64,000 nt of DNA, taken from the NCBI GenBank assembly GCA_035760905.1, contig DASTSC010000268.1, forward strand, positions 1,411 to 65,410. Direction: 5' to 3'. This DNA is from Candidatus Limnocylindrales bacterium. GTDB lineage: Bacteria > Chloroflexota > Limnocylindria > Limnocylindrales > CSP1-4. Below, piece by piece: positions 24,385 to 26,033 of the stretch. The position numbers were made by a program, and so were the translations under genes. The notes under the pieces are model-generated. The model was given only the letters and a program-made list of their open reading frames with translations, made no database searches and had not been told where the DNA came from. Within the stretch, counting starts at the first letter, position 1. The number at the start of each line of letters is the position of its first letter.

Positions 24385-24585
24385 TCAGGAGGCGAAGAGT
24401 GGATCGATATCCGCGGCGACGTCGAGCGGCGCGCAGTCGGGACAGAGGACAGCGCCGTCCTCGACGAGTCCTGCTCCGCCGAGCCGGAGGGCGCGGCCAC
24501 AGCCGTCGCACTCGACGACGCGCTCACCGGCCGGCCGCTCTCGCGTGTCGCTCATCGGTCGAACGGTACGCGGGCGGGGCGTCAT
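24385..24585 (-). CDS. Small zinc-ribbon protein (CxxC-x17-CxxC)
   Basis: ECDGCGRALRLGGAGLVEDGAVLCPDC. Paralogous in pattern to the ORF at 57440..57610 (VVECPWCG...CDEC). Alternative start is M11 at 24555. No clear RBS. Confidence 0.35.
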   Translation of the reverse strand: MTPRPRTVRPMSDTRERPAGERVVECDGCGRALRLGGAGLVEDGAVLCPDCAPLDVAADIDPLFAS

Positions 24586-24665
24586 CGACGCGAACAGCGC
24601 CCGGTCGCCGCGTTGCCGCTCCGTTGCGAGCTGCAGCCGGCCAGCCGGTCGCGGGCAATGGCCTA

Positions 24666-24684
24666 CCTGACAGGATCCGTCAGG
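24666..24684. promoter_or_regulatory. Operator-like inverted repeat in the divergent region between the Zn-ribbon gene and the WYL regulator; overlaps the regulator's -35
   Basis: CCTGACAGGATCCGTCAGG (arms CCTGAC/GTCAGG). A TATCAT -10-like hexamer at 24702-24707 sits 6 nt before the ATG at 24714, suggesting a leaderless mRNA. Confidence 0.4.
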
Positions 24685-24713
24685 CTCCGGCCGTTCCGGC
24701 CTATCATCGGCCG

Positions 24714-25772
24714 ATGCGAGCGAGCCGCCTCGTCAACGTCCTGCTCCTCCTTCAGACCCGCGGCGGGCTCACCGCGGCCGAGCTGGCGCGCGAGCTCGAG
24801 GTGTCGGTCCGGACCGTCTATCGCGACGTCGAGGCGCTCGCCGAGGCGGGCGTCCCGATCTACGCCGAGCGCGGGCCGCGGGGCGGCGTCCGGCTCGTCG
24901 ACGGCTACCGGACCCGGTTGACCGGTCTCACGGTGGACGAGGCCGAGGCCCTCTTCCTCTCGGGGCTGCCGGGGCCGGCCGCCGAGCTCGGACTCGGTAC
25001 CGTCGTGGCGGCCGCTCGACTCAAGGTGCTCGCCGCGCTGCCACCCGAGCTCCGGGCACGGGCCTCGCGGATCAACGAGCGGTTCCACCTCGACGCGCCC
25101 GGTTGGTTCCATCGTGGCGAGGCGCTCCCGCACCTCGGGGCGCTCGCCGACGCGGTCTGGGAGTCGCGTCGAATCGCGATCGGCTATCGGCGACAGGGGG
25201 CCGACGCCCCCGTCCTGCGCAAGGTCGAACCCCTCGGCCTCGTCCTCAAGGGCGGCGTCTGGTACCTGGTGGCCCGGACGAACGGCCAGGACCGGACGTA
25301 TCGCGTCTCGCGCGTGACCGAGGTCCGACCCGAGGACGGCCAGTTCGAACGACCGGCGGACTTCGACCTCGCGGCCTACTGGGCAGCGTCGATCACGGCC
25401 TACGAGGGCGAGCAGCCCGCCACCGAGATCCTGCTGCGGGTCGACCCCGGCAACCTCGCGGTCGTCACCGATCTCATCGGTCCCGCGAGGGTGGACGTCG
25501 TCGGACCCGAGCTTCCCGGGAATGCGCTCCTCGTGCGGGTCCGCTTCACCTGGGACGACGAGGCCGTCATGGCCCTCTTCCGTCTCGGCGCACGCGTGGA
25601 GCTCGTCGGCTCGGACGCGATCCGGGCGCGGCTCCTGCGGATGGCCCGAACGGCGCTCGAGCATCACGCCGCCGGCCCCGTCCCGGCGGCCCAGCGTGCC
25701 GACCCGGCCCTTCCCGCCGAGTCGGAGCGCCGACCGGTCGAGGCCGCGGCCACACCAGGCGGTCGTCGCTGA
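24714..25772 (+). CDS. YafY/PafBC-family transcriptional regulator (N-terminal wHTH + WYL domain + C-terminal WCX-like)
   Basis: DeoR-like wHTH (LTAAELARELEVSVRTVYRDVEALAEAGVPIYAERGPRGGVRL). Central WYL-type beta-barrel (LVLKGGVWYLVARTNGQDRTYRVSRV). ATG at 24714 lies in the frame of giant ORF 22833..25772. Confidence 0.8.
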   Translation: MRASRLVNVLLLLQTRGGLTAAELARELEVSVRTVYRDVEALAEAGVPIYAERGPRGGVRLVDGYRTRLTGLTVDEAEALFLSGLPGPAAELGLGTVVAAARLKVLAALPPELRARASRINERFHLDAPGWFHRGEALPHLGALADAVWESRRIAIGYRRQGADAPVLRKVEPLGLVLKGGVWYLVARTNGQDRTYRVSRVTEVRPEDGQFERPADFDLAAYWAASITAYEGEQPATEILLRVDPGNLAVVTDLIGPARVDVVGPELPGNALLVRVRFTWDDEAVMALFRLGARVELVGSDAIRARLLRMARTALEHHAAGPVPAAQRADPALPAESERRPVEAAATPGGRR

Positions 25773-25806
25773 GACCAGGTTCGCCTCGACCGATCAGCGC
25801 GGCCGA

Positions 25807-25962
25807 TCAGCGCCGGTCAGCGCCGGTCACCCACCGGCCGATGCGTTCCCCGACCGTCCGCCGATGGATCCGCCCGGCGCGGAGCGCGCGCACCAGCTCG
25901 GACCGTCGCAGCGCGCGTCGACGCTCGTTCTCGATGACCGTCAGAAGCTCGATCGTGGACAT
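25807..25962 (-). CDS. Small basic protein (51 aa), putative DNA-binding; hypothetical
   Basis: ATG preceded by AAAGGGGA. The encoded sequence is MSTIELLTVIENERRRALRRSELVRALRAGRIHRRTVGERIGRWVTGADRR. A RecA-NDp-like promoter lies upstream. Confidence 0.4.
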   Translation of the reverse strand: MSTIELLTVIENERRRALRRSELVRALRAGRIHRRTVGERIGRWVTGADRR

Positions 25963-25995
25963 GCCGTCCCCTTTCCCCGTCGCTGTCGTCCGTTC

Positions 25996-26033
25996 GTCAA
26001 GGACCACAGTAGGGTGAGTACCTGACAGGTACT
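25996..26033 (-). promoter_or_regulatory. PafBC/RecA-NDp-like promoter: TGTCAGGT-N8-TACTGT, embedded in a perfect 17-nt palindrome
   Basis: Minus-strand reading gives AGTACCTGTCAGGTACT (palindrome 26017-26033), then ACTCACCC (8 nt), then TACTGT (TANNNT). The small gene's ATG follows about 45 nt downstream. Confidence 0.45.

Follow-up and report, generated by a model that had tools for sequence, protein, structure and literature searches.

A WYL-family regulator flanked by two operator-like inverted repeats and a convergent small gene in Candidatus Limnocylindrales

The regulator gene and its surroundings

The window analysed here, a 64-kb stretch of DNA from a Candidatus Limnocylindrales soil bacterium (phylum Chloroflexota), has a gene coding for a putative regulator of 352 aa (24714..25772, + strand), and a copy of a 19-bp inverted repeat lies on each side of it. 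Its neighbours are a divergently oriented gene for a CxxC mini-protein, a gene for a TMEM260-like protein, a convergent ORF of 51 aa and greA, the last of which is divergent from the 51-aa gene and encodes a GreA carrying a GIY-YIG-like nuclease domain. The primary sigma factor is also encoded in the window (10424-12142). No known RNA family was found in the region. When the regulator, the 51-aa ORF, the CxxC mini-protein and GreA were examined with PADLOC, only generic WYL models were returned, for the regulator, and no defence families occur among the Pfam matches of the further neighbours.

WYL regulators are emerging as nucleic-acid-sensing switches and, to our knowledge, only a handful have been studied, namely PafBC, DriD, SiwR, CapW and BrxR; we know of no regulator of the DriD/SiwR/PafBC class previously described in Chloroflexota. 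The initial annotation of this locus, made from the sequence, had assigned to the regulator the wHTH-WYL-extension architecture of PafB and PafC, in the form of a single gene, and both points hold. Pfam directly identifies an HTH_11 domain forming the wHTH (E-value 3.2e-16, residues 9-58), an Sm-like WYL domain (1.6e-20, residues 140-205) and a WCX domain (3.1e-7, residues 236-315), all above the gathering score. The locus has just one WYL gene, with no tandem pafB-pafC pair, and this holds for every syntenic relative as well as for the window.

In a PDB sequence search, the nearest solved structures are DriD (E-value 4e-7), which is the best match, PafBC (1e-6) and Mycobacterium smegmatis PafB (1.6e-6). 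The recognition-helix arginines R33 and R37 of the regulator align with R46 and R50 of PafB, the arginines which read the GTC triplet of its DNA site (PMC8635444). The WYL motif itself is present as W183-Y184-L185, with R194, R197 and R200 nearby; the series R194-x-x-R197-x-x-R200 aligns with pRsWRldRm of DriD and tRtFRlsRi of PafB, an equivalence of position judged by sequence alignment alone.

The best 80 homologues of the regulator obtained in a genome scan share 48-66% identity with it over the best segment. None of these 80 is a mycobacterial sequence, which indicates that the protein belongs to a related subfamily and is not an orthologue of SiwR; the sequence comparison with SiwR below is made on its operator, as given by the published oligonucleotides.

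Two inverted repeats beside the regulator gene

The conserved element on either side of the gene is a 7-5-7 inverted repeat of 19 bp, CCTGACA-N5-TGTCAGG, with the core GAC-N7-GTC. A search for CTGACA-N5-TGTCAG with at most one mismatch returned two sites in the 64-kb window against 0.025 expected, and these two flank the regulator gene. Such a symmetric operator with a GAC-N7-GTC core, accompanied by one regulator gene, is the arrangement of DriD/SiwR-type systems, as is the presence of a copy in the regulator's own promoter near the start codon. The initial annotation had also drawn attention to a further copy of the consensus 8-mer TGTCAGTG at 1478-1485. This occurs at chance level (one found against 0.37 expected) and was dismissed as a third site, being without an inverted partner (three mismatches, a degree at which 12 such sites are expected).

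The upstream copy, termed operator 1 (24666..24684; CCTGACAggatcCGTCAGG, which reads CCTGACA-GGATC-CGTCAGG), has one mismatch to CTGACA-N5-TGTCAG, and its first arm read on the minus strand is TGTCAGGT. The right arm GTCAGG lies 17 nt upstream of a TATCAT hexamer (24702..24707, + strand), at the -35 position of the regulator promoter, and this -10 hexamer is found 6 nt before the ATG, which implies a leaderless mRNA. The proposal of a second TGTCAGGT within an inverted repeat at the regulator's -35, in front of a leaderless promoter, is borne out by six close lineages in which operator 1 and the identical layout recur. All six keep without variation the order CCTATC(A/C)T, a gap of 6-8 nt, start codon. 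Distant homologues have a hexamer of the form TAnnnT or nAnnnT, which stops 6-8 nt short of the start codon.

The repeat is found 15-40 nt upstream of the start codon in approximately 60 of the best 80 homologues, from Chloroflexota and Actinomycetota, at a distance of 21-24 nt in most homologues and of 30 nt in the window. A -26-type version of the regulator's own site occurs in many distant lineages. Across the six close lineages, the spacing from the operator 1 half-site to the -10 is 16-18 nt. A recent 9-nt duplication (TCCGGCC..TCCGGCC) displacing operator 1 from the -10 was considered as an origin of this long spacing and rejected, as the spacing is kept in 6/6 of these lineages and thus represents the normal state of the clade. 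Operator 1 was also rejected as a promoter element of the divergent CxxC gene, the minus strand having no -10 at the right spacing. Comparison of approximately 90 loci points to one operator grammar throughout a large subfamily of WYL regulators, encoded by single genes in Actinomycetota and Chloroflexota, in which CTGACA-N5-TGTCAG is placed on leaderless, autoregulated promoters.

Operator 1 would serve in autoregulation by means of the half-site at the -35 position, and here repression is more likely than activation. An operator covering the -35 at a variable spacing of 16-18 nt is a layout typical of occlusion, as opposed to a precise activation geometry, and it fits a reading in which the regulator is purely a repressor. 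In that case it would block RNA polymerase at both operators until released by an ssDNA ligand, so derepressing the small ORF and itself. CapW and BrxR, which also have the wHTH-WYL-WCX architecture, repress adjacent CBASS or BREX operons and recognise palindromes close to their own genes, and CapW senses ssDNA (PMC11662680; bioRxiv 10.1101/2022.01.04.474952). The locus has no defence genes nearby, however, and the form of the small-ORF promoter described below also speaks against pure repression, which is considered unlikely.

The small gene and its promoter

The downstream copy of the repeat, operator 2 (26021..26039), reads ACGGACA-GTACC-TGTCAGG on the minus strand and likewise has one mismatch to CTGACA-N5-TGTCAG. 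Upstream of the 51-aa ORF, the minus strand from 26027 to 26006 consists of TGTCAGGT-ACTCACCC-TACTGT, and TGTCAGGT-N8-TACTGT has no other match in the window (0.00 expected for the exact form and 0.17 for the relaxed form TGTCR-N11-TAnnnT). TACTGT (26006..26011, - strand) was assigned as the -10 hexamer by comparison with 13 lineages, it being TAyyGT in the seven close lineages and yAnnnT in the six distant ones, always exactly 10 nt past the proximal half-site hexamer. Over the 13 lineages the promoter takes the form nnnGACA-N5-TGkCnn-N10-yAnnnT with both spacings invariant, and GACA-N5-TGkCA of operator 2 is itself invariant. Transcription is predicted to start near 25998-26000, giving a leader of approximately 37 nt, and the proximal arm TGTCAG would then fall at -28..-23.

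There is no -35-like hexamer in this promoter in any of the 13 lineages (0-3/6 matches), an extended -10 is absent in 12 of the 13, and a consensus scan of the region identified no sigma-70 promoter. Without a -35 and an extended -10 the promoter should be weak unaided. Moreover, a repressor needs no phasing such as the invariant 10 nt between half-site and -10, which equals the spacing used by the activator PafBC. The geometry of a PafBC hybrid promoter, in which a half-site lies 10 nt from TAnnnT and no -35 is present, leads us to infer activation at operator 2.

Two further conserved elements lie between this promoter and the ORF. At the predicted transcript start there is a conserved block, GACGAACGG (25990..25998, - strand), as part of the initial transcribed region or the 5' UTR; within it CGAACG is kept in 7/7 close lineages and the longer ACGAACG in six, at a similar distance from the -10. 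An extended Shine-Dalgarno sequence of 12 nt, GGGGAAAGGGGA (25967..25978, - strand), precedes the ATG start codon of this ORF by 4 nt and is identical in 7/7 close lineages. In lineage L093 the operator and the small ORF are both retained without an adjacent regulator, a sign that operator and small gene belong together. Control of greA by operator 2 was considered and rejected, as the repeat lies anywhere between approximately 40 and 127 nt from the start of greA, which has a leaderless-type -10 of its own.

In the initial annotation, the 8-mer next to this -10 was read as a PafBC motif with one mismatch, forming a PafBC/RecA-NDp-type promoter. The PafBC consensus derived from ChIP is tGTCgg(N10)tA(N3)T, its element lying at -23..-28 (PMC8635444), and the site matches it in spacing and wherever the consensus is well conserved; the count of mismatches has to be amended, since TGTCAGGT and TGTCAGTG disagree at two positions (7 and 8). 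Similarly, the promoter type is upheld as regards geometry, with N10 and no -35 in 13 lineages, but the 8-mer proves to be the proximal half of a symmetric 19-bp DriD/SiwR-type operator. The perfect 17-nt palindrome in which the motif had been described as embedded (26017..26033; AGTACCTGACAGGTACT, 8-1-8) is present, overlapping operator 2 with its centre 5 bp off. However, it is specific to the window and is broken in lineages L087, L084, L092 and L093, and so it is not the conserved element.

The agreement of TGTCAG-N10-TACTGT with tGTCgg(N10)tA(N3)T would also be expected of a genuine PafBC/RecA-NDp box read, as in mycobacteria, by a PafB-PafC heterodimer whose genes lie elsewhere in the genome. 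This we hold to be extremely improbable. The site is one arm of a symmetric repeat that accompanies the single-gene regulator in 12 of the 13 lineages, and a further copy of this repeat stands upstream of the regulator gene. PafBC boxes, by contrast, lack symmetry, DNA being contacted by PafB alone, and PafBC has been described from Actinobacteria (PMC8635444), while the host belongs to Chloroflexota, its GreA being 100% identical to a protein of a Candidatus Limnocylindrales MAG. Nor was a pafB-pafC pair found in the window region examined.

The presumed target gene (25807..25962, - strand) encodes an Arg-rich protein of 51 aa (MSTIELLTVIENERRRALRRSELVRALRAGRIHRRTVGERIGRWVTGADRR), and its proposal as a gene behind this promoter is supported by homologues, synteny, dN/dS and the GC content by codon position, which is consistent with coding. 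Homologues of the protein show 61-65% identity, and the family comprises 14 clusters of 42-66 aa, one of them from Candidatus Limnocylindrales; judged by these homologues, it is a real family restricted to Limnocylindrales. The dN/dS value of approximately 0.15-0.5 over the first 27 codons denotes purifying selection. In the alignment, conservation extends over the full length across the 14 clusters, with the C-terminal half poorly conserved in distant relatives. The protein is very basic, possesses no hydrophobic segment and is modelled by AF2 as one continuous helix (residues 3-49, pLDDT 77). No Pfam, NCBIfam or PADLOC family was found for it. The possibility of an HTH_17/excisionase-like protein (PF12728) was rejected (hhalign probability 7.6%, no Pfam matches, a single helix in the AF2 model). 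One weak phmmer match to a tandem HTH_17 protein was recorded (E-value 6.6e-4).

In 12 of the 13 lineages the small ORF and the regulator gene are arranged convergently; a gap of 35 nt separates their 3' ends in the window, and in L084, L087 and L092 they overlap by 4 nt. No intrinsic terminator was found; a hairpin at the convergent junction (25727-25800, z -3.4) was rejected as a conserved bidirectional terminator, not being conserved. Convergence of this kind without a terminator is what would be expected if the promoter at 26006-26039 chiefly made an antisense transcript that enters the regulator gene at its 3' end, giving negative feedback by transcriptional interference, with the 51-aa frame secondary or incidental. 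The dN/dS range, the invariant 12-nt Shine-Dalgarno sequence and the conservation of the protein in 14 clusters argue against this, as does L093 with its promoter and ORF and no convergent regulator, and we consider it very unlikely as the chief role of the promoter. It should be mentioned that an antisense role and a coding role of the small-ORF transcript are not mutually exclusive.

Proposed mechanism and comparison with known WYL systems

Our preferred reading, which we regard as fairly probable, is that the locus as a whole is a self-contained module, with a putative homodimeric WYL regulator, two operators, activation of the 51-aa gene, autoregulation of the regulator gene and an ssDNA signal. 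The domains, the two sites with their statistics, the conservation of sites and spacings and the coding nature of the small ORF are observed; that the regulator binds these sites, which way it regulates, what it senses and what the small protein does are what we infer from them. The 352-aa wHTH-WYL-WCX protein is most likely a homodimer, as are DriD and SiwR, and may bind both 19-bp repeats flanking its gene. At operator 2 it would activate the 51-aa gene by substituting for the -35 contact, in a manner resembling sigma adaptation. By analogy with PafBC, DriD, SiwR and CapW, the WYL domain probably senses ssDNA, in which case genotoxic or foreign-DNA stress would lead the module to turn on the small protein.

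More tentatively, and with considerable doubt, Limnocylindria could have a WYL-controlled response independent of SOS, with the 51-aa protein as its stress-induced effector. This would be a functional counterpart of the DriD/DidA pair, with the small protein made from a -35-less promoter through a homodimeric WYL activator which replaces the contact between sigma region 4 and the -35. Such an effector might work jointly with GreA, the product of the divergent gene, on transcription or DNA. Were this so, PafBC-style sigma adaptation would not be limited to Actinobacteria or to heterodimers. The exact PafBC spacing from half-site to -10, without a -35, is now seen in Chloroflexota with a symmetric operator, and sigma adaptation by homodimeric WYL proteins thereby becomes testable. 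The 51-aa protein also represents a previously unannotated family confined to one uncultured lineage of soil and freshwater, in which it is a candidate stress effector.

In PafBC, two tandem genes supply the subunits of a heterodimer, of which one HTH contacts DNA and the other sigma region 4; the system is conserved across Actinobacteria and controls approximately 150 genes (PMC8635444). The locus resembles it in domain architecture, in the GTC-reading arginines and in a GTC hexamer followed by 10 nt and TAnnnT without a -35. It differs in having one gene in place of two, a symmetric operator in place of an asymmetric box, a local regulon and a host in Chloroflexota. Having one gene, a symmetric site and a Chloroflexota host, the regulator is not PafBC.

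With CapW and BrxR, the regulator shares the wHTH-WYL-WCX architecture and a palindromic operator beside its own gene. These systems have an adjacent defence operon, whereas none was found here, and the target promoter of the present locus is -35-less with phasing of the activator type.

DriD of Caulobacter crescentus is a homodimeric WYL activator of an SOS-independent damage response, with the operator ATACGAC(N7)GTCGTAT, the core site CGAC-N7-GTCG and the crystallised site ATACGACAGTTACTGTCGTAT, whose core G and C are read by two arginines of the recognition helix (PMC10853764, PMC9186387). It binds its own promoter, and homologues carry the motif approximately 17 nt upstream of the start codon; among its targets is the small-protein gene didA, whose product acts on the divisome and binds FtsN (PMC10853764, PMC9186387). 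Apart from being the best match of the regulator in the PDB, DriD has in its crystallised site the segment GACA-N5-TGTC, which matches the window exactly. The base adjacent to the core differs (cGAC in DriD, tGAC here), as does the phylum. DidA binds FtsN at the divisome, whereas the 51-aa protein is a basic helix without a hydrophobic segment, and DriD controls recA, recJ and dnaG, while no such targets were seen within the 64-kb window.

SiwR (MSMEG_1359) of M. smegmatis is a homodimeric wHTH-WYL-WCX activator with the palindrome TAGGAC-N7-GTCCTA, the EMSA oligonucleotides giving TAGGACA-GTTCC-GGTCCTA (PMC10693628). Its -26 region is reported to be essential, a mechanism related to sigma adaptation was proposed, and WYL arginines are needed for ssDNA binding (PMC10693628). 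The marks of a SiwR orthologue, namely adjacent DinB_2/DUF664 or PF18029 genes and TAGGAC-N7-GTCCTA, are absent from the locus. The likeness to SiwR extends to a single gene, the three domains, a 19-bp 7-5-7 imperfect palindrome with a GAC-N7-GTC core, a site between the -35 and -10 of the target promoter and a small, local regulon, and an R-x-x-R equivalent to the SiwR WYL arginines can be recognised, by sequence, in the window regulator. The arms are TAGGACA/GGTCCTA in SiwR and CCTGACA/TGTCAGG here, and the targets are divergent, upstream DinB_2/DUF664 enzymes in SiwR, as opposed to a convergent, downstream 51-aa helical protein. The locus differs further in its second operator, placed at the -35 of the regulator gene, and in its Chloroflexota host. 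The geometry may differ also, in that the essential GGA at -26 of SiwR may sit at the centre of the palindrome and not in the proximal arm.

The locus extends current views of these systems and overturns none of them, adding one more regulator to the known DriD/SiwR/PafBC class of DNA-damage-type regulators.

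Operator and regulator

The upstream regions of 80 loci encoding homologues of the regulator (24714..25772, plus strand) were fetched and compared, and the inverted repeat CCTGACA-N5-TGTCAGG was found to be common to them, taking the form CACTGACA-N5-TGTCAGTG in Streptomyces. With two or fewer mismatches, it lies 15-40 nt before the start codon in about 60 of the 80 loci. The window holds exactly two sites for CTGACA-N5-TGTCAG with at most one mismatch (24667-24683 and 26022-26038; 0.025 in shuffled sequence), and these bracket the regulator gene. Given this shared repeat and the two window sites, TGTCAGGT is considered an arm of a 19-bp operator with two-fold symmetry. 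The second TGTCAGGT which the initial annotation had placed near the regulator does exist, at 24672..24665 (minus strand), being the left arm of CCTGACAggatcCGTCAGG at 24666-24684. Other details fared less well. A single mismatch to the published PafBC motif had been counted, whereas TGTCAGGT and TGTCAGTG differ at two positions. The 17-nt palindrome (26017-26033) thought to embed the motif is perfect in the window and overlaps the operator at 26021-26039, centred 5 bp away from it, yet it is broken in relatives and is therefore not the selected feature. The further copy of TGTCAGTG proposed at 1478-1485 occurs at chance frequency (one found, 0.37 expected) and lacks an inverted partner. Its surroundings (1467-1499) are a divergent region adjoining a cupin gene, with CGTCAT preceding it in direct, not inverted, orientation and GAATAT 7 nt later, and it probably has nothing to do with the WYL operator. 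There is also a palindrome, GTGACAG-GCTAG-CTGTCAC, at 57399-57417 (GACA-N7-TGTC; the WYL operator spacing is N5), with an ABC-ATPase gene on one side and a second small CxxC...CxxC ORF (57441-57611, plus strand; MNDQSLPQLRVVAVVECPWCGCW...) on the other; this palindrome may serve another regulator as its operator.

The operator also accompanies the Actinomycetota homologues (loci L011-L080), a large subfamily in which the WYL regulator is a single gene, and its distance from the leaderless start codon there is nearly constant at 21-24 nt. The partners there are mostly divergent small enzyme genes, these being PNPOx-like, DUF3224, SnoaL-like, methyltransferase or an unassigned 159-aa family. No description of CCTGACA-N5-TGTCAGG was found in the literature searched.

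The 352-aa regulator possesses HTH_11, WYL and WCX domains, all above the Pfam gathering score, which bears out the wHTH-WYL-extension architecture assigned to it from sequence. Its closest homologues are found in Chloroflexota/Limnocylindrales MAGs, and by sequence it is about equally distant from DriD (E-value 4e-7) and PafBC/PafB (about 1.5e-6). Residues R33 and R37 align with PafB R46 and R50, the readers of both guanines in the GTC triplet (PMC8635444), and an R-x-x-R-x-x-R motif in its WYL domain lines up with its DriD and PafB counterparts.

The two promoters

The minus-strand sequence at 26027..26006 is TGTCAGGT-ACTCACCC-TACTGT, the sole such match in 64 kb (by chance, 0.00 matches to the exact pattern would be expected, and 0.17 when it is relaxed to TGTCR-N11-TAnnnT). 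TACTGT is followed by GGGGAAAGGGGA-N4-ATG, opening the 51-aa ORF at 25962..25807. Upstream of the small ORF, nnnGACA-N5-TG(T/G)Cnn-N10-(T/C)AnnnT and then a 35-58-nt leader are present in all 13 lineages, with the 5-nt and 10-nt spacings invariant. In seven close lineages the intergenic region varies in length and sequence apart from four conserved blocks, namely the repeat, the -10 (TAyyGT), CGAACG at the predicted transcript start and a 12-nt SD. A search at 16-19 nt for a hexamer resembling a -35 was negative in every one of the 13 lineages (0-3 of 6 matches), an extended -10 TG occurs in just one, and a generic sigma-70 scan returned no promoter in 24300-26300. The in vivo PafBC motif is tGTCgg(N10)tA(N3)T, with its upstream element at -23 to -28 and no -35 (PMC8635444). 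The PafBC-type promoter proposed for the 51-aa gene thus holds in its geometry, TGTCAG-N10-TACTGT matching exactly, but the site is an arm of a symmetric operator and is very unlikely to be a PafBC box.

In one relative's locus, L093 (1500-1830), operator, -10, SD and small ORF are kept beside greA with no adjacent WYL gene, a Zn-peptidase gene lying directly next to them; the operator is therefore tied to the small gene, and the regulator of this locus must be encoded elsewhere or lost.

As for the regulator's own promoter, the TATCAT reported 6 nt before its ATG (24702-24707) lies 17 nt after GTCAGG, in a layout kept in close lineages and fitting a leaderless promoter. Six such lineages (regulators 70-91% identical) have CCTGACA-N5-nGTCAGG, 16-18 nt, CCTATC(A/C)T, 6-8 nt and then ATG or GTG. 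This layout makes the proximal arm coincide with the -35 position, in a promoter that is leaderless and whose spacer is flexible, as is typical for -35/-10 spacers. A recent TCCGGCC duplication shifting the window's upstream operator was considered and rejected, the long spacing being conserved in the clade. More distant homologues have a TAnnnT or nAnnnT hexamer 6-8 nt before the start codon, with 9-10 nt between it and the proximal arm; on this spacing their promoter is predicted to be -26-type and leaderless.

The small protein and gene neighbourhood

The tiny ORF (25807..25962, minus strand) is a gene, as the initial annotation had it, judging from homologous clusters, purifying dN/dS (mostly 0.15-0.5 over the ungapped first 27 codons) and a GC pattern by codon position compatible with coding; the rival reading of its promoter is that it produces an antisense transcript. 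A word-indexed search with the protein returned only itself. Exhaustive phmmer over 1.84 billion representatives gave four homologues (42-51 aa, 61-65% identity), and a profile search gave 14 clusters, one annotated Candidatus Limnocylindrales. The clusters are conserved over their full length (consensus MSTIExLxVIEDERRRxARRSELxRLARxGRVHRRxxGERxGRWL). At six loci further removed within Limnocylindrales/Chloroflexia (L001-L004, L006, L007), the equivalent position is taken by a small ORF on the minus strand, which has a good SD and an N-terminus of the type h-h-x-x-h-x-x-E-R-E-R-E-I, and profile-profile comparison links the close and distant families over the first 24 residues (probability 75%, E-value 2.6e-5). 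No Pfam, NCBIfam or PADLOC family was matched, and a weak match to an HTH_17 protein was set aside, being unconfirmed by further comparison. The protein is basic and is predicted to be helical, AlphaFold2 (14-sequence alignment) modelling one continuous helix over residues 3-49 (pLDDT 77 overall and about 90 within the first 20 residues). Short tandem direct repeats at 25787-25825 (CGxCCGATCAGCG twice and CCGxTCAGCGCCG twice) occupy the ORF's 3′ end together with the stretch separating it from the regulator stop, and may be behind the variable C-terminus.

The conserved gene order is DUF72, Zn-peptidase, long GreA, divergent small ORF, convergent WYL regulator, sometimes a 56-aa CxxC protein, and a TMEM260-like gene. 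The 3′ ends of the convergent small ORF and regulator are 35 nt apart in the window and overlap by 4 nt in relatives' loci L084, L087 and L092. A strong hairpin at 25727-25800 (18-nt arms, 89% complementary, z -3.4) lies over the regulator stop at this junction; it has no U-tract, and conservation was not seen in five relatives. GreA (26166..27413) is 100% identical to one protein from a Candidatus Limnocylindrales MAG, and the host belongs to Chloroflexota, class Candidatus Limnocylindria, and is not an actinobacterium. As a side finding, this GreA has >460 homologues, mostly named just GreA, and Foldseek gave no match; the values listed alongside are 9.5 for T4 EndoII, 7.5 for the UvrC N-terminal domain, 7.0 for R.Eco29kI and 6.5 for I-TevI.

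Divergent from the regulator is a 56-aa CxxC...CxxC zinc-ribbon-like ORF (24385-24555, minus strand), conserved in L084 (57 aa, CDGCGR...LCPDC), with a 56-aa gene at the equivalent position in L090; it is absent from L087 and matched no family. Its ATG is preceded by TACCGT at a distance of 7 nt, suggesting a leaderless mRNA. The greA start has TAGGAT, 6 nt and GTG (26154-26166), and in L087 TACGAT, 7 nt and ATG (about 2883-2900). As greA, the regulator and the CxxC ORF all look leaderless, this sequence layout suggests that such mRNAs are common in the lineage. A primary-type sigma factor gene (572 aa; regions 1.2, 2, 3 and 4) is located at 10424-12142 (plus strand).

Proposed mechanism and related systems

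A regulator dimer would bind both operators. At the small-ORF promoter it would activate transcription by supplying the -35 function, a role inferred because the phasing is exact and no -35 is present; the alternative is that the regulator acts there as a repressor. Along with this activation, the regulator would occupy the -35 position at its own promoter and autoregulate, and transcriptional interference between the convergent genes may provide additional feedback. The likely trigger is ssDNA bound by the WYL domain, on the model of PafBC, DriD, SiwR and CapW.

The PADLOC scan of the locus gave no defence context, and the regulator is not considered a defence-system repressor. The spacing match of the small-ORF promoter to PafBC is certain. 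The system is not PafBC, which has two genes, an asymmetric box and an actinobacterial host. The likeness of promoter geometry to SiwR is uncertain, and the regulator is not a SiwR orthologue, as the operator arms differ and DinB-type neighbours are lacking. SiwR activates as a homodimer and depends on the -26 region; the mechanism proposed for it is related to sigma adaptation (PMC10693628). DriD occupies its own promoter and turns on didA, which encodes a small protein (PMC10853764, PMC9186387). The operators of DriD (ATACGAC(N7)GTCGTAT; crystallised site ATACGACAGTTACTGTCGTAT), SiwR (TAGGACA-GTTCC-GGTCCTA, a 19-bp palindrome read from EMSA oligos) and the window family (CCTGACA-N5-TGTCAGG) have a common GAC-N7-GTC core but different flanking bases. 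This core and the features of DriD and SiwR thus place the window system, as judged from sequence, in the class of homodimeric WYL regulators.
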